From IMG/VR virus record IMGVR_UViG_3300009181_000044, positions 1 through 64,000 of that record: a stretch of DNA of 64,000 nt. One strand, given 5' to 3'. Shown here one piece after another: positions 482 through 11,252 of this stretch (the first letter of the stretch is position 1; each line of letters opens with the position of its first letter). The stretch is from a virus. Both the position numbers and the translations under genes were made by a program. Under the pieces are notes generated by a model that saw only the letters and a program-made list of their open reading frames with translations, was not told where the DNA came from and made no database searches.

Positions 482-625
482 TTAAGACTAGACACTTTGA
501 GTGGATTGCCTACAATCACGGAAATCTAGTGTGCTGGGAGGAGCTCGCGACTTACGGGGATCCAGTAACACACTAGAATTTGCGTAGATTTAGGGTCAAT
601 GCACAATCAAAGTAGACTAGTCTAA
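482..625 (+). ncRNA. long imperfect hairpin (5' leader or small RNA)
   Basis: Nested arms: AGACTAG/CTAGTCT, ACTTTGA/TCAAAGT, CTAGTGTG-CTGG/CCAG-CACACTAG. Confidence 0.5.
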
Positions 626-653
626 AGGTTTTGGGAAAACTACGTTTAAAAAA

Positions 654-1430
654 ATGCTACAATTAAGAAAACTAACTATAACTGAATTACCACTTAACTT
701 AATTGCTACAATGACGGAAACTGAATTGGAGGATTGGGCTGTAAAGAACCAACTCAATCGCATGGGATCGTGGCTCTTGCCCCAACTTGTGGCGGCTTTT
801 GGTTCGTGGCGACTCATCCTAGTTGACGGCAAACCAGATGTTAAACTGACCCTAAAGCACAACTGTGAGTCTAGTTTAGAAGCTCAGGCATACTGGCGGC
901 TAAGCCGAATTCCACGCACGTGCCTATTAACCAAGCAGGTAGCAATTCCAGAGTATGCTGTGTTAACTCCACTAATCCTAGCAGGATTTAAGCGTATGCA
1001 GGCAGTTGGCTATGCGTCATGGCAGGGTTTAGAAAATTTAAGCTATGTCATAGAACCCCGTCTCTTGGAGGCAGTTTGTGTTGATGTGCCTGACTTAGGG
1101 TCAGAGCGACTATTGGAGATTAGACAACAGGGGTTAACAACACGCAGTGGCAAAAGTGCAGGTCAACTAAAGTCAGCAGAAACTACTTGGAGCTTGAATG
1201 GAATATCGGACACTGAGTTGGGACATCTACCCAAATTAACACAATCCATATTAGCTCAAATCTGGCTGGCCCATCCGGTTCACAGAAGTGGGCTTATGAT
1301 TTTAGATCCGGGCAACTGGGATCACATGCCAGAACCACTAATTGCACCCACAATATTTAAACAACCCATTAAAGAATCTGAAGTAATAAACGCAAAAGAA
1401 ACAGCAAAAACACTACTACCGTGGATGTAA
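654..1430 (+). CDS. hypothetical phage protein (258 aa)
   Basis: Long ORF downstream of a promoter, abutting the next gene; no motif recognised. Confidence 0.75.
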   Translation: MLQLRKLTITELPLNLIATMTETELEDWAVKNQLNRMGSWLLPQLVAAFGSWRLILVDGKPDVKLTLKHNCESSLEAQAYWRLSRIPRTCLLTKQVAIPEYAVLTPLILAGFKRMQAVGYASWQGLENLSYVIEPRLLEAVCVDVPDLGSERLLEIRQQGLTTRSGKSAGQLKSAETTWSLNGISDTELGHLPKLTQSILAQIWLAHPVHRSGLMILDPGNWDHMPEPLIAPTIFKQPIKESEVINAKETAKTLLPWM

Positions 1431-1431
1431 G

Positions 1432-1749
1432 ATGAAATACAATAAAGAAATCACTGACCGTATTATAGCTGACTACAAGGCTAAGGTGCCAGTTCGAGAT
1501 ATAGCTAATGCAATTGACGTACCAGAACGCTCAATTATAGCAAAATTAAGCTCTTTAGGAGTTTACGAGAAAAAAACGTATGTTAATAAACGAGGTGAGC
1601 TGCCCGTAAAAAAATCCGAGCACATTGAACGCATAGCACAACTGCTTGAGGTCAATTCAGAGACCCTAGAATCGCTGGAAAAGGTAAATAAGGGAGTACT
1701 TAAGTTAATTGAACTTAAATTGACCAAATCTGACCCTAAACCAGAATAA
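1432..1749 (+). CDS. T5 A2-like DNA-binding protein, paralogue 1
   Basis: RSIIAKLSSLGVYEKK...LESLEKVNK aligns with the other three copies and with recalled T5 A2 (SVRSKL..AKAY..; LASLE). Confidence 0.65.
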   Translation: MKYNKEITDRIIADYKAKVPVRDIANAIDVPERSIIAKLSSLGVYEKKTYVNKRGELPVKKSEHIERIAQLLEVNSETLESLEKVNKGVLKLIELKLTKSDPKPE

Positions 1750-1767
1750 TTGCCCATAATTCGACAC

Positions 1768-1802
1768 AAGCCTACTTAATTTCGGTTAAGTAGGCTTTTT
1801 TG
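1768..1802 (+). terminator. intrinsic terminator
   Basis: AAGCCTACTTAA-TTTCGG-TTAAGTAGGCTT followed by a T run. Confidence 0.85.
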
Positions 1803-2009
1803 CGTCTGCTCTAATCAGGTCAAATCAGGCTATTTTGCGGCACCACTGCAATTGTTACGGTTTAGGGTCAGTAGAACTCAAAGGTTACACTTTAGGGTCA
1901 GAACAGGAACCTATGGGTAAAAATCAAGAATTTGCACTTGACAAGTTGAACACACACTGGTAAAATGGCGCAGGCACGTCGAAAATTTGCGATGTGGTTT
2001 ATTTTACGC

Positions 2010-2048
2010 AAAACAAAGCCCCCTCACCGCGACGTGTAGGGGGCTTTG
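2010..2048 (-). terminator. intrinsic terminator closing the RNA cluster
   Basis: Minus strand CAAAGCCCCCT...AGGGGGCTTTG followed by TTTT. Confidence 0.8.
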
Positions 2049-2066
2049 AACTCGCCAGTTTTTTAG

Positions 2067-2426
2067 TGGTTGTCTAAGTGCAGCTGCCAAGCCGCACACT
2101 GGTTTCCTCAGTGGTTCTCTAACAGGACTTCTGGAAGACGGTCTTCACGGCCTGACCCTAAACTGCACACTGCCTCACTGACGTTACTGTGAGCATACCG
2201 GTGGTTAGGGGAGTAATGCGCTACGCTTCCAACGCTTGCGCCCTTTTTAACGACTTAGGGTCGAGCCGGTTATATTGTTGCTCCCGCTCGGACTAAAGCA
2301 GGGACTAGCCTTGTAACGTGGACAATTACGACTGATTAGAGACCGCTGCAGTTTAGGGTCATTAACGCTACTGGGGGTTCCACCCAGATTACCTGACTCA
2401 TAGGTCAAGCTCTTAAGGTCTTAGAT
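2067..2426 (-). ncRNA. large structured RNA of unknown class, ending in CCA
   Basis: No ORF; 15-bp long-range helix 2347-2361/2153-2167; many hairpins with GNRA loops (GGAA, GCAA, GAAA) on the minus strand; 6-bp closing stem TCTAAG/CTTAGA then CAACCA. Confidence 0.6.
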
Positions 2427-2568
2427 GATAGCTGTATTTATAGAGTTCTTTCTCTTCTAGTTTTGTATTCACACTCATAGTGGAGTCGGGAGGAGTATAG
2501 ACTTTGCTCCGAGCCTAGGGTTACGTACTATTTACAAACTACCACAAGGGATTTATGTTTAGGTTCGG

Positions 2569-2666
2569 TTCCTGACCCTAAGCTGCGACTAGCGGTGTTG
2601 TAGTAACACGCACACTAGCTGCGATTGCTTGGGTTTCGCTAGACTTGCACTAGCTCATCAGAGGAA
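2569..2666 (-). ncRNA. hammerhead ribozyme (type I)
   Basis: TTCCT-CTGATGA-GCTAG(TGCAAGT)CTAGC-GAAA-CCCAAGC...GCTTAGGG-TC|AGGAA: full core, stems I-III paired, GUC cleavage triplet. Confidence 0.88.
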
Positions 2667-2668
2667 TA

Positions 2669-2738
2669 TGGTGGGCGGTGTGTAGCTTCTCACACCATCA
2701 AGTTGTTATCAGATTCGTAAATCTGTCGCATAACACCC
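2669..2738 (-). ncRNA. tRNA-sized CCA-ending non-tRNA RNA
   Basis: GGGTG/CGCCC-A-CCA closing stem; internal hairpins CAGATT-TACG-AATCTG and GGTGTG-N8-CACACC; no TTC T-loop. Confidence 0.6.
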
Positions 2739-2743
2739 AAAAC

Positions 2744-2818
2744 TGGTACTCGGCAGGAGAATCGAACTCCTCTTTCCGCCGTGAAAGGGCAGCGTCCTAA
2801 CCGATAGACGAGCCGAGC
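2744..2818 (-). tRNA. tRNA-Glu (TTC)
   Basis: GCTCGGC acceptor stem, anticodon arm CTGCC-CTTTCAC-GGCGG, T-loop GTTCGATTC, encoded CCA. Confidence 0.95.
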
Positions 2819-2918
2819 AGGATACTAAGGGCTGTGGCTCGGGTAATTTATTCCCCACAATTAAGACGCATAACGGATAAATCCCGTTTCCGCTGTCACC
2901 CTGAATTAATATATAATA

Positions 2919-2947
2919 ATTATAACGTAATCAAGCTCGGTAATCAA
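2919..2947 (-). promoter_or_regulatory. sigma70 promoter driving the RNA cluster
   Basis: TTGATT-N17-TATAAT on the minus strand. Confidence 0.75.
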
Positions 2948-3089
2948 GTAAAAATAAACAGTCGTTGTTATCAGAACTAACTTAGGTGAATTTAAAAAAA
3001 TTAATTAGGTTGACTAAGTGTTCATTAACAAACGGGCGGCCGGGTTTTCACGGTCATTCATTAAGCCCTTCCCGACTGTTTATAAATAA

Positions 3090-3118
3090 ATTATACAGCA
3101 AATAGGGTCGTCAATCAA
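3090..3118 (-). promoter_or_regulatory. second sigma70 promoter upstream of the RNA cluster
   Basis: TTGATT-N17-TATAAT on the minus strand. Confidence 0.7.
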
Positions 3119-3144
3119 GTGAAGATTTTCTGACCCTAAATTGC

Positions 3145-3453
3145 TCAAGGCAGGCGAGCTGCCAAGAGTTCGAGTGCTTCGTGGGTTGCCTTTTCCAGGC
3201 TTTCCAGCACTTCTTCACTAGCGCCCACTTTGTAGGCAATCAGGCTTACCAGCTGAGCCTTGGTCACGCGAGTGCCAGTAGCCTTGCTTTTGGCCTTGTA
3301 CACGCCTTCGCGGCTGAGCTTGGCCACGATGCTGCGGGTAGATTTGCCCAGTTGTAGGGCAAGGATTTCTACAGCCAAGCCTTGGCTGTAACCCTGCAAG
3401 AGTTCAGCCGTTTGTTCGGCGGTGTAGTTGGTTTTGGTAGCTTCAGTCATCAT
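3145..3453 (-). CDS. T5 A2-like protein, paralogue 2
   Basis: NYTAEQT...RSIVAKLSREGVY...LESLEKAT; AAAGGA RBS. Confidence 0.7.
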   Translation of the reverse strand: MMTEATKTNYTAEQTAELLQGYSQGLAVEILALQLGKSTRSIVAKLSREGVYKAKSKATGTRVTKAQLVSLIAYKVGASEEVLESLEKATHEALELLAARLP

Positions 3454-4265: not shown

Positions 4266-4592
4266 TCAAATAGGTTTACTATTTGCCAAAGCGTCAAAAA
4301 TCGCTTTCAGTGCCGATTTATTGGCTTTTGTAAGACTTTCGATGTCATTTTCCGGCAAGCGGAGAATCGCACCGATAGCGTCTGCATGAGCGTCTTTTTT
4401 GACTACAGCTTCGCCCGTTTTGGAAACGTAAGTTTTAGCCACATAGACCTTTTCGCGTGACAATTTCGCCACAACGGAACGCACAGTTTTGCCCAAATTT
4501 TGGGCAATGGTTTCCACCGATACCCCTGAGGTATAATCGGCAATCATCGCAGAGGTTTGCTCTGGAGTGTAATTTACAACTTTCGCAGTCAT
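4266..4592 (-). CDS. T5 A2-like protein, paralogue 3
   Basis: KTVRSVVAKLSREKVYVAKTY; very similar to 9308-9631. Confidence 0.75.
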   Translation of the reverse strand: MTAKVVNYTPEQTSAMIADYTSGVSVETIAQNLGKTVRSVVAKLSREKVYVAKTYVSKTGEAVVKKDAHADAIGAILRLPENDIESLTKANKSALKAIFDALANSKPI

Positions 4593-8988: not shown

Positions 8989-9116
8989 AGATCATCCTCA
9001 GAGAAAAATTGTTCAAGTGCCCCATTGTATTCGGAAAGGTTTGCAAACGCAAGACCATTACGATCACAGAATCGGTGAAAGCGGTTTAATTGTGCTTTAG
9101 TGTATTTTGTTTTCAT
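8985..9116 (-). CDS. hypothetical protein (43 aa)
   Basis: ATG 7 nt after TATAAT. Confidence 0.5.
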   Translation of the reverse strand: MKTKYTKAQLNRFHRFCDRNGLAFANLSEYNGALEQFFSEDDL

Positions 9117-9307
9117 GTTGTCTATTATACAAGGTTTTCTAAGATTTGCAAGCGTTTTGCGAAAATACCACATAGGGACAAACCCCTATTGACACACCCC
9201 AATTTTATGTGATAAAATTGGCGCAAACAAAGTAGTACCTTTGTTTGCAAAAGGGCAAGTAGTACCTTTGTTTGCAAAAGGGCAGGGTCAATAACCCTGC
9301 CCTTTGG

Positions 9308-9631
9308 TCAGGCTTTTTCAGCCTTGATAAAATCGGCAATTTTTGCCAATGCAGTTTTGTTAGCCTTAGTCAGCGAATCAGCATCAGCCTCAGAGAGTGC
9401 CAGTGCCTTAGCGATGAAATCAGCGAATTCATCTTTTTTAACAACGGCTTCACCCGTCTTGGTGGTGTATGTCTTGGCAACATAAACCTTCTCGCGAGAG
9501 AGTTTAGCAACAACAGATCGAACAGTTTTGCCAAGGGATTCAGCAATGGATTCGACCGATGTGCCAGCCTGATAGTCAGCGACCATTTTAGCGGTTTGTT
9601 CGGCAGTGTAGTTTACAGTTTTTGCAGTCAT
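9308..9631 (-). CDS. T5 A2-like protein, paralogue 4
   Basis: MTAKTVNYTAEQT...RSVVAKLSREKVY; GGAG RBS. Confidence 0.75.
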   Translation of the reverse strand: MTAKTVNYTAEQTAKMVADYQAGTSVESIAESLGKTVRSVVAKLSREKVYVAKTYTTKTGEAVVKKDEFADFIAKALALSEADADSLTKANKTALAKIADFIKAEKA

Positions 9632-9688
9632 AGAAAAATCTCCATTTAGTTGAGAGGTTGAAAAGAATTTATTATATCACACATTTAG

Positions 9689-9796
9689 TTAATAAAGCCA
9701 TACCCACAAAGGGGCAAAGGCTATTGCCACAAATAGGATAGCTTGCAGAAATTCAATAGCAAGTTGTTTCATGTTGGTCACCTTGTTTGTCATCAT
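9689..9796 (-). CDS. small membrane peptide (not in ORF track)
   Basis: MMTNKVTNMKQLAIEFLQAILFVAIAFAPLWVWLY downstream of a TATAAT promoter. Confidence 0.45.
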   Translation of the reverse strand: MMTNKVTNMKQLAIEFLQAILFVAIAFAPLWVWLY

Positions 9797-10019
9797 GTAT
9801 TTATTATAACATCAAAACAAAAAAAGATCAAGTGTGTGTTTAAATACAACATTAGGGAATGTACCTATTGACAGGGGGGTTAAGAGACATACTGTTACAC
9901 ACACGCTACTGGACCCACCCACACGGCCTATCAGGGGAAATTTTTGGAAACCCATCTGGGTGCGTAAACCACTGCACACAACAAAACACAACCGCAAAAA
10001 CCACCACAAAAAAATCAAC

Positions 10020-10048
10020 TTGCCACAGCCTACCCAAACTGATATAAT
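10020..10048 (+). promoter_or_regulatory. late-region sigma70 promoter
   Basis: TTGCCA-N17-TATAAT before TerS. Confidence 0.75.
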
Positions 10049-10068
10049 AGAACCAAAAAGGACAACCC

Positions 10069-10542
10069 ATGACACAAATGCTACCTGCTGAAGTCATTAA
10101 GATAGCCCCAGAAGCACTAGAAGTGGCCAATTGCTATCTACAACTTAACGACCCTAGAAAGGTCGCACACGAACTAGACCTGGATGTAGAAACTGTAACT
10201 GAACTACTAAAGCGACGTGAAGTTAAAGCTTACATAGACTCGGTATTTTTTGACTCGGGCTATAACAACCGCTTTCTTATGCGTCGAGCCATGGATGCAC
10301 TAATCAAACAAAAGTTTCAGGAATTAGAAGAAGCTGGAGCAGGCTCGCAAAAAGACATTTCAGAACTCTTAGCGCTTTCGCACAAGATGAGCATGGATCT
10401 CATGGACAAAGAAATTCAGCTGGAAAAAATCCGGGCAGGTACTGCACCGCAAAAACAAGTTAATGTGCAAATTAACGAAGGTTTAGATGGAAGCAAGTAT
10501 TCAAAGCTGGTACAGCAGTTAATCTCAGGAGAAGGTGTTTAA
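10069..10542 (+). CDS. terS: terminase small subunit (T5-like)
   Basis: EVKAYIDSVFFDSGYNNR...KFQELEEAGAGS.KDI resembles T5 TerS; upstream of TerL. Confidence 0.85.
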   Translation: MTQMLPAEVIKIAPEALEVANCYLQLNDPRKVAHELDLDVETVTELLKRREVKAYIDSVFFDSGYNNRFLMRRAMDALIKQKFQELEEAGAGSQKDISELLALSHKMSMDLMDKEIQLEKIRAGTAPQKQVNVQINEGLDGSKYSKLVQQLISGEGV

Positions 10543-11252
10543 TGAACCTTGCTAGTAAAATTACTATTGTTGTGCCTTGCAAAAATGAAGAAAACTATAT
10601 TGCCCACTTACTATACGCACTACGTGCTCAAGACGTTGGCAATACTAGGATTATTATTGCAGATTGTAGCACTGATACTACCAGAGCAGTTATTGCGGCT
10701 AACAGGTATGGTTTAAATGTTGAAGTTATTGAAGGCGGACCTGTATCAGTCGCAAAGAATCGTGGTGCTGCATTAGTCACTACACCTTATATCTTATTTA
10801 TTGACGCAGACGTAAGATTTTTTAACACTGGTGTTATTTGGGATGCTGTCCGCACCCTAGAAAACAAGAACTTAGATTTAGTGGGTTTAAATGTCCGCTG
10901 CTATGACGGCGACCGACGAGCACAAATTGGTTTCACAATATTTAATTGTGTAAATAATATCCTAAAGTACTTTGCGCCTTTTGCAGTAGGTGCGTTTATG
11001 CTAACACGTCGTGATAGATTTCAGGAACTAGGTGGTTTTCCAGAACAGTTCGCTACATCCGAAGATTACTTTTTATCGCGCAAGTATAGCACTCGCAAGT
11101 TCCGGTTACTTAAACACTACTTTGGACAAGACTCGCGTAGGTTTCGCAAGATGGGTTATTTTGGCATGACCAAGTATTTAGTTGTAAACTTTTTAAACAG
11201 AAATAACAAAGCCTACTGGGATAACCTAGACTCTTCAAAGTATTGGAGCTAA
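10542..11252 (+). CDS. GT2-family glycosyltransferase
   Basis: IVVPCKNEE, DCSTD, FIDAD, SED motifs. Confidence 0.9.
   Translation: MNLASKITIVVPCKNEENYIAHLLYALRAQDVGNTRIIIADCSTDTTRAVIAANRYGLNVEVIEGGPVSVAKNRGAALVTTPYILFIDADVRFFNTGVIWDAVRTLENKNLDLVGLNVRCYDGDRRAQIGFTIFNCVNNILKYFAPFAVGAFMLTRRDRFQELGGFPEQFATSEDYFLSRKYSTRKFRLLKHYFGQDSRRFRKMGYFGMTKYLVVNFLNRNNKAYWDNLDSSKYWS

Follow-up and report, generated by a model that had tools for sequence, protein, structure and literature searches.

A probable hammerhead-released large noncoding RNA of uncultured freshwater T5-like phages

The DNA analyzed here (hereafter the window) is a stretch of 64,000 nt, positions 1 to 64,000 of the 98.9-kb IMG/VR virus record IMGVR_UViG_3300009181_000044, whose large terminase (TerL) is ~50% identical to that of Vibrio T5-like phages (Demerecviridae). 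Between positions 1750 and 3140 there is no credible open reading frame (ORF), and the minus strand carries in this order a sigma-70 promoter, a leader, a tRNA-Glu gene, a 70-nt tRNA-like element, a type I hammerhead ribozyme, a large RNA and an intrinsic terminator (Table 1). The large RNA is the subject of this report. We consider it quite probable that 2055-2573 (minus strand) specifies a stable, highly structured noncoding RNA (ncRNA) of ~510 nt, the last unit of an RNA-only operon, which the hammerhead would release from the transcript. The RNA body is a new family, uncatalogued in Rfam 15, although its general kind (large phage RNA) is already known, and the family has so far been found only in uncultured freshwater T5-like phages. 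An original prediction, made from the letters of the window, had placed a large structured RNA at 2067-2573, ORF-free and directly downstream of a ribozyme. Its limits proved right to ~10 nt per end, a complete hammerhead was found with a predicted cut at 2574/2573, and no reading frame is conserved: open frames in the RNA stretch are short and non-conserved, and translated similarities among homologues are short and switch between frames. The G+C content of the ORF-free stretch 1750-3140 is 0.46-0.52, against ~0.35 in the neighboring genes.

Homologs were searched for in IMG/VR contigs using as probes a syntenic 258-aa protein, a conserved 20-mer, the hammerhead core pattern and two subfamily motifs. 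Thirty-six distinct homologous units were found, with RNAs ranging from 310 to 861 nt, and the hammerhead, the RNA and a terminator on the same strand are present in every one of them (36/36). The subfamilies share the 5' core and the 3' part and swap central modules; the window RNA itself combines the 5' half of subfamily b with a central module typical of subfamily a. A search for homologs had been proposed with the original prediction as a check, and these 36 homologs, with the covariation described below, show that the RNA is conserved.

The hammerhead core match is the sole one in the window, where none is expected by chance. The catalytic core is invariant in 36 sequences, as is the A15.1-U16.1 pair (36/36), and the cleavage site, GUC followed by A at 2576-2573, puts the predicted cut exactly at the upper coordinate of the stretch proposed in advance. 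All 36 homologs have a stem III insert of ~45 nt and a GGGUC-then-AGGA junction at the hammerhead. Compensatory pairs in these sequences number three in stem II (21 sequences each), five in stem III and four in stem I, which is only 3-5 bp long; stems II and III are closed and stem I is open, as in type I. The covariation score of the hammerhead (0.331) is far higher than in shuffled alignments (0.129 ± 0.010, reached in 0/500) or in controls with the partners slid (at most 0.121). A genuine hammerhead is strongly supported by these sequence comparisons, and the proposal that it matures the 5' end of the RNA is supported by its three covarying stems and by RNA contigs that stop 11-20 nt inside the predicted cut. 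At E up to 10 the unit is missed by every Rfam hammerhead model, and the 23.5 bits scored by one relative fall short of the threshold (48.5); the ~45-nt insert in stem III is the most likely reason.

Phages and prophages are well known to carry hammerheads that cleave long transcripts (Perreault et al. 2011, PMC3088659). The unit described here resembles these type I hammerheads (RF00163) in its full core, its three stems, which covary here, and its GUC site, and it likewise would split a longer phage transcript. It differs from them in the structured ~45-nt stem III insert, the 3-5-bp stem I and the lack of an Rfam call, and in that it would release an ncRNA rather than separate mRNAs; it is a processing device only and not the large RNA itself. 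Its stem II pattern (CTGAYGAGC-NNN-TGNAANT-NNN-GCGAAAC) occurs in at least 120 viral-contig stretches (IMG/VR loci L011-L127), and because most of these matches are hammerheads unrelated to the present RNA family, this type of stem II loop is widespread in phages. The strand of the cleavage site (2568-2586) is 84% complementary over 19 nt to the region of the 5' arm of a long helix in the RNA (P5; 2348-2366), and in an uncleaved transcript the two could form an alternative pairing. A second hammerhead substrate considered at 2153/2154 (GGGUC then AGG) was rejected by inspection, as stems I and III of relatives (e.g. L004) would not pair there.

The body of the RNA was examined in an alignment of 15 subfamily-b sequences, for which RNAalifold gives a consensus of 67 pairs. 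Compensatory changes are seen in 22 of the 67 pairs, compared with 10.6 ± 1.8 in shuffled alignments (0/500), and 95.5% of the paired cells can pair, compared with 35-49% when the partners are slid. The covariation score of the body is 0.247, again higher than in shuffles (0.123, 0/500) and in slid controls (0.04-0.065). Covariation, named in advance as a check on the predicted RNA, is therefore well above both kinds of control. The best-supported elements are hairpin H3, the hairpin with the AAAGAA loop, the three-way junction and the terminator. The stem of H3 covaries (helix 3), and its loop pairs with the segment just downstream by at least seven different complementary pairs across the whole family, among them GCAG/CUGC, GCAUG/CAUGC, GCGUG/CACGU and GCUG/CAGC, with GGAG/CUCC in the window. 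Loops pair better with the segment of their own RNA than with those of other RNAs (self mean 3.81 vs cross mean 2.98; scores of 4 or higher in 58% vs 21%). Because this pairing is kept by at least seven sequence pairs, the universal 5' core is read as a hairpin-type pseudoknot. A kissing pair between 2286-2298 and 2502-2514 (13 nt, 85% complementary) was set aside as a chance match, as it would compete with the pseudoknot and is not seen in relatives.

Downstream of this core, the hairpin at 2442-2455 (helix 4) shows swaps from A-U to U-A, and the predicted hairpin at 2473-2486, which is made of A-U pairs in the window, has G-C pairs in L004 and L070. The helices of the three-way junction (helices 5-7) are supported, with compensatory changes in four of the five pairs of helix 7 (2371-2387). 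The 19-mer AAAUACAGCUAUCAUCUAA at the entrance of the junction occurs only once in the window, where no complement to it is found elsewhere, and all 15 subfamily-b rows agree in 17 of its 19 columns. The central module is common to subfamily a, with 88% identity to L008 over 50 nt and two to three copies in L007; its outer stem occurs as GGCAC/GUGCC, GGUGC/GCACC and GCGC/GCGC. The CGAC-CCUAA-GUCG hairpin (2251-2263) is also a widely shared module, its stem being invariant. At the 3' side, all homologs have on the RNA-sense strand a terminator of the form GCCCC...GGGGCTTTTGTTT (GCCCC...GGGGCUUUUGUUU), whose stem positions covary (helix 13).

The stretch is present in 24 public sequencing runs from 19 studies, all of freshwater or lake origin, including six RNA libraries. 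The RNA evidence consists of assembled contigs, which carry no strand and no exact ends. Four runs (X4, X8, X19 and X23) were compared over 1700-3300. In RNA run X19, a 504-nt contig equals 2059-2562 without a difference, at a depth of 46.7. In RNA run X8, a 529-nt contig lies on 2055-2557 with adapter directly after 2557, and its depth (194) is ~90-fold above that of the single flank contig of the same run (1749-1996, depth 2.2). RNA run X23 gives pieces from 2064 to 2553, with adapter directly after 2553. The bins at 2564-2725, which hold the hammerhead and most of the tRNA-like element, have zero depth in all three RNA runs, and no RNA contig covers the terminator at 2009-2054. In contrast, run X4, which has no library record and is guessed to be DNA, has contigs both across the hammerhead (2113-2668) and across the terminator (2009-2106), at a depth of ~23. 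These lake metatranscriptome contigs show a plentiful, discrete RNA of ~505 nt, with limits that are compatible with the hammerhead site on one side and with a position shortly before the terminator hairpin on the other, and so speak for the stable transcript that had been predicted. The 3' end is probably trimmed to some extent, since the RNA contigs finish at 2055-2064, before the terminator hairpin is reached. No joint of a circular form was seen in the RNA runs, though contigs cannot exclude one. A 3' CCA just before the terminator had also been pointed out as a sign of tRNA-type processing. An ACCA is indeed present at 2070-2067 ahead of the hairpin, but it is specific to the window, the homologs having A-rich tails at this place; because the CCA is not conserved, tRNA-type 3' processing is not supported. 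In all, the RNA has the general attributes of a structured ncRNA: its pairs change in a compensatory way more often than in controls, it has no conserved ORF, and it is represented by abundant contigs in three metatranscriptome studies.

Table 1. Features of the RNA operon and its surroundings in the window
Feature	Position	Strand	Description
258-aa protein, syntenic with the RNA	654-1430	plus	>270 homolog clusters in metagenomes, all unnamed
Three paralogous proteins, 102-108 aa	1432-1749; 3145-3453; 4266-4592	plus; minus; minus	weak PHROG matches: 'DNA binding protein', 'D5-like transcriptional regulator'
Element cluster, TGACCCTAA(A)/TTTAGGGTCAG	590-3139	both orientations, alternating	copies at 590, 847, 1095, 1731, 1862, 1892, 2153, 2353, 2573, 3131
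Sigma-70-type promoter	2919-2947	minus	TTGATT, 17-nt spacer, TATAAT; consensus scan 10/12
Leader between promoter and tRNA-Glu	2825-2900	minus	conserved block GGGTGACAGCGGAAAC...CCACAGCCC (also given as GGGUGACAGCGGAAAC...CCACAGCCC)
tRNA-Glu (UUC)	2744-2818	minus	encoded CCA; Rfam tRNA 50.9 bits; ARAGORN
tRNA-like element, 70 nt	2669-2738	minus	ends ACCA; conserved in L002, L003, L004
Type I hammerhead	2574-2666	minus	core CTGATGA..CGAAAC 2661-2633; ~45-nt stem III insert; GUC cleavage site 2574/2573
RNA body	2055-2573	minus	5' end by predicted hammerhead cleavage; 3' end near 2055-2064 by RNA contigs; homolog alignment, RNAalifold
5' core, hairpin H3 and pseudoknot	2492-2517	minus	stem 2512-2517/2498-2503; loop 2507-2510 GGAG with 2492-2495 CUCC
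Two small hairpins	2442-2486	minus	ACUC/GAGU 2473-2486; AGAG/CUCU with AAAGAA loop 2442-2455
19-mer and three-way junction	2367-2439	minus	AAAUACAGCUAUCAUCUAA 2421-2439; closing helix 2429-2432/2367-2370; hairpins ~2393-2409 and 2371-2387
P5 5' arm, UGACCCUAAACUGCA	2347-2361	minus	15/15 complementary to 2153-2167
Central module inside P5	2197-2270	minus	hairpin CGAC-CCUAA-GUCG 2251-2263; GUUAAAAAG; GCGC...GCGC hairpin with UGGAA loop 2218-2241; CUCCCCUAACC 2203-2213
P5 3' arm, UGCAGUUUAGGGUCA	2153-2167	minus	15/15 complementary to 2347-2361
Intrinsic terminator	2011-2050	minus	arms 2038-2048/2014-2024, perfect 11 bp, then U-tract

P5 is the main helix of the window RNA. A perfect 15-bp helix around a multi-hairpin domain had been part of the original prediction, and both the 15/15 pairing and the enclosed ~180 nt, which fold into several hairpins, stand. 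Neither arm is independent of the other in sequence, however, for the two are inverted copies of a dispersed element, TGACCCTAA(A). The window has 12 exact copies of this element against 0.53 expected, 10 of the 12 lying within 590-3139; its extended consensus is TTTAGGGTCAG. The perfect match of the arms is therefore partly inherited from the element. The hammerhead-RNA unit holds four copies, three exact and one near, namely at the hammerhead cleavage site, in both P5 arms and, as the near copy CGACCCUAA, in the hairpin at 2251-2263. The rest are in flanking genes and upstream of promoters: copies stand 13-20 bp upstream of the -35 box at two promoters, within flanking genes at their 3' ends and, in frame, inside the ORF of the 258-aa protein. 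In relatives, the element recurs in syntenic positions as far as ~2.5 kb past the RNA gene, and not on its other side. An equivalent of P5, formed by a GACCCUAA-type segment with a 3' UUUAGGGUC segment over 9-18 bp, can form in most homologs, with compensatory flanks that read ACUGCA/UGCAGU in the window, GCCACAGU/ACUGUGGU in L002/L166 and AUCGUGGC/GUCACGGU in L033. The core of P5 (helix 8) is nearly invariant, while other helices such as helix 7 covary freely, and this is explained by both arms being copies of the locus-specific element. Paired copies outside the RNA gene have, by inspection, no extra complementarity in their flanks, whereas inside the RNA gene the helix is extended to 15-18 bp; for this reason, we read P5 as a real RNA helix. 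From its distribution, the element is read as having a sequence-specific role elsewhere as well.

These repeats raise the question of whether the locus is primarily a DNA-level element, that is, an array of binding sites for a phage or host protein, resembling the injection stop signal (iss) region of T5 or an iteron-type origin, in which the RNA is incidental or secondary. The clustering of the exact copies in both orientations, some of them inside ORFs, the retention of copies by relatives at syntenic sites beyond the RNA gene and upstream of promoters, and the scant variation in the core of the 15-bp helix all speak for such an element, as does the existence of a comparable region in T5. 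The T5 iss is an untranslated, repeat-rich region of 1.2-1.7 kb at the inner edge of the terminal repeat (Davison, bioRxiv 10.1101/866236). In the T5 genome (NC_005859, our locus L167), the iss at 9100-10936 has a 14-nt repeat of its own, TGTGCAAATCCGAC, in five to seven copies (10-mers counted on both strands). The two loci are alike in being gene-free over ~1-1.7 kb beside pre-early-type genes, with dense direct and inverted repeats of a short motif (bioRxiv 10.1101/866236; NC_005859 annotation). They differ in that a search of the T5 iss region found neither a hammerhead of this type nor GACCCTAA, that no RNA product has been described for the T5 region, and that the inverted repeats here fall largely within covarying RNA helices. 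Against a purely DNA-level explanation, local hairpins, the junction and the pseudoknot, none of which contains a copy of the element, covary as RNA, the stretch is bracketed by a covarying hammerhead and a terminator on the same strand, and in one RNA run it stands ~90-fold above the single flank contig, with discrete ends. As the sole explanation, a DNA element is unlikely. A DNA role can coexist with the RNA and is likely to do so, and the element cluster is probably, by analogy with the iss repeats of T5, a protein-binding array.

A second alternative sees in the RNA a spacer or trailer left by the processing of a tRNA operon, stable only through its structure and without a function of its own. 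It does lie downstream of tRNA and tRNA-like elements in one operon, and its central modules are freely exchanged among relatives. The upstream part of the operon is itself variable. The tRNA-Glu gene is kept in some relatives and missing in others; a true tRNA directly precedes the hammerhead in some, only tRNA-like elements do so in others, and L002 and L004 are without any tRNA. Yet the hammerhead and the RNA persist in these two relatives, the 36 homologs (310-861 nt) retain conserved blocks and covarying helices, and it is the large RNA that is the covered product in the RNA runs, the bins at 2564-2725 being empty. We regard the spacer explanation as quite unlikely. In the 70-nt tRNA-like element (2669-2738), which neither ARAGORN nor Rfam calls a tRNA, a short stem resembling an acceptor stem is combined with a long hairpin carrying a UACG loop and with a hairpin like a T-arm. 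The last of these covaries among relatives, and L002, L003 and L004 show compensatory changes in the hairpin GGTGTG...CACACC.

Several points weigh against the reading of 2055-2573 as a hammerhead-released ncRNA of the minus strand. Strand, exact ends and cleavage of the RNA are read from contigs and conserved signals, and the RNA contigs end at 2553-2562 and not at 2573. Standard second-strand cDNA protocols usually lose such 11-20 nt at the 5' side, which may account for the gap. Only part of the window fold has comparative support, because the center of the RNA is a mosaic among relatives. The flanks of P5 are semi-conserved and show a modest excess of self-pairing (4.47) over cross-pairing (3.85), and P1, a possible closing helix between AGGA (2570-2573) and UCCU (2124-2127), was rejected as its pairing is chance-like (self 4.73 vs cross 4.68). 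There is also no clue to a specific function: UGGA hairpin loops, considered as a repeated protein site (CsrA sponge), are not enriched (30 vs 21 ± 4.6 in shuffles, the loop not being invariant) and were dropped, and the 258-aa neighbor has no recognizable fold. As for the strand, G-U pairs had been claimed to favor the minus strand, and this did not hold: in pairs predicted on both strands the count of G-U versus A-C is 10 vs 7, each strand yields G-U-rich extra pairs of its own, and the counts favor neither. The z-score of the single-sequence fold is moreover better on the plus strand (-3.1) than on the minus strand (-1.2; 20 shuffles).

These last two points, together with the strandless contigs and a near-consensus plus-strand promoter facing the region (1938-1966; 11/12, with TG), would suit a functional RNA made from the plus strand by reading through a bidirectional terminator. 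This is very unlikely, as that promoter is separated from the region by two terminator-like hairpins (1975-1996 and 2014-2048), RNA coverage is first seen past the terminator and runs out at the hammerhead site, and the RNAalifold consensus energy is worse on the plus strand (-37.6) than on the minus strand (-49.2). The minus-strand assignment of the ncRNA rests on the hammerhead, tRNA, promoter and terminator U-tract conserved on that strand and on the start and stop of the RNA coverage. The 1938-1966 promoter (TTGACA, 17-nt spacer, TAAAAT), which points at the terminator of the RNA, is kept in relatives and is directly followed by the hairpin at 1975-1996; it would be the source of a tiny convergent transcript.

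Searches against known families lend no match to the RNA. None of the 4227 families of Rfam 15 matches within 2055-2573 at E up to 10, and none matches the homologous RNAs of nine diverse relatives at E up to 1; the RNA body is therefore without a hit to GOLLD, ROOL, HEARO, raiA, OLE, tmRNA, RNase P RNA, 6S, SRP or group I/II introns in this database. ARAGORN finds no tmRNA in the window, permuted forms included, and the family has no conserved reading frame. The absence of tmRNA, RNase P and SRP hallmarks had been stated at the outset and agrees with these results, and the novelty of the RNA stands after the Rfam comparison that had been proposed as its check. In a blastn comparison of the region and of one subfamily-a member with 50,697 phage records, no cultured phage was found to carry the RNA, the matches being confined to the tRNA or absent altogether, and a pattern search for this hammerhead type found none in T5 or in Vibrio phage vB_ValS_X1, whose TerL is ~50% identical. 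Full-text literature searches for the element, or for a description combining T5-like phages, hammerheads and non-coding RNA, returned nothing relevant.

GOLLD and ROOL are phage-encoded RNAs of more than 500 nt, intricately folded, ORF-free, often beside tRNA genes, found in metagenomes and without a known function, and self-assembly into multimers has been reported for both. The present RNA is like GOLLD (RF01998) and ROOL (RF03087) in being a large, folded, ORF-free phage RNA near tRNAs. It has no sequence or structure match to them, its conserved blocks and host phages differ (here freshwater T5-like phages), and its 5' end is set, as predicted, by a hammerhead. The tRNA clusters of T4 and T5 also encode small stable non-tRNA RNAs of ~100-140 nt, which are co-transcribed with the tRNAs, excised from the common precursor by tRNA-type enzymes and of unknown function. 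A stable phage RNA from a precursor shared with tRNAs is common to both cases; here it is ~510 nt long, would owe its release to a ribozyme and lacks a conserved CCA end. That the RNA is a diverged member of a known large family (GOLLD, ROOL, tmRNA, RNase P RNA, a group I/II intron or another) which Rfam fails to score is highly improbable: Rfam does miss the genuine hammerhead of this very locus, owing to the stem III insert, and GOLLD and ROOL do occur beside tRNAs, but the Rfam and ARAGORN searches were negative and, to our knowledge, the conserved blocks recall no signature motif of any known large RNA family.

The surroundings of the operon contain further conserved features. Homologous operons carry the same promoter block, followed by TATTATATAAATTGAT, upstream. 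The leader block is common to the window, L091, L129 and L151, with 67-76% blastn identity to relatives, and this conserved, folded leader may represent another tRNA-like element. At 3090-3118 on the minus strand lies a further sigma-70-type promoter (TTGATT, 17-nt spacer, TATAAT) with a copy of the element just upstream, and after it, at 2960-3085, there is a conserved non-coding stretch of ~100 nt with a GGGC...GCCC hairpin and a U-rich tail, which may be a further small RNA. Two of the three 102-108-aa paralogs flank the RNA operon convergently. The 258-aa protein has no Pfam or PHROG family. Its AlphaFold model is confident (pLDDT 84), and no similar fold was found at Foldseek E ≤ 0.001 (best 2.1) or by VIA-align (Z at most 4.5), with no evidence for a new fold. 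Four small DNA-binding paralogs (PHROG 1725, 323), of which the fourth lies near 9308, and this orphan protein are candidate partners of the RNA or of the element.

The reading of the locus as a gene for a hammerhead-released ncRNA suggests the following course of events. The transcript would cleave itself co-transcriptionally at 2574/2573, freeing the RNA with a 5'-OH, as expected from hammerhead chemistry; the 3' trailer with the terminator hairpin would be removed and the 3' end trimmed to ~2055-2064. The RNA folds into the 5' hairpin-pseudoknot core, the small hairpins, the three-way junction and the long-range 15-bp helix that closes the variable hairpin modules. This compact RNA would persist and act in trans early in infection, most plausibly as a protein-binding scaffold or decoy, an early role being suggested by the strong T5-type promoter adjoining genes of DNA-binding proteins. 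By analogy with ROOL and GOLLD, a self-assembling RNA particle is another possibility. Because P5 and the cleavage site are built from the element TTTAGGGTCAG, the RNA and the adjoining DNA element probably share a sequence-specific partner.

It is tempting to go further and to regard the RNA and the TTTAGGGTCAG element as one system, in which the RNA would work with a sequence-specific reader of the element or would pair with the element itself, the two together controlling an early step specific to T5, for example the halting and resumption of the two-step DNA entry or the switch-off of early promoters (pre-early in T5). This is a speculation in which we place little confidence. If it is true, the repeat-rich iss regions of T5-like phages would be RNA genes, at least in this clade.

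Large RNAs with an elaborate fold and no assigned role are seldom found, and new biology has come from each new class. The RNA described here adjoins genes resembling the pre-early genes of T5 in a widespread freshwater clade of T5-like phages. It is good starting material, with a defined transcription unit (a promoter, a 5' end that would be made by a ribozyme, and a terminator), 36 natural variants, a modular center and abundance in lakes. The link between the RNA and the DNA element would offer a concrete handle on its function and possibly on how T5-like phages organize the boundary of their early (in T5, pre-early) DNA.

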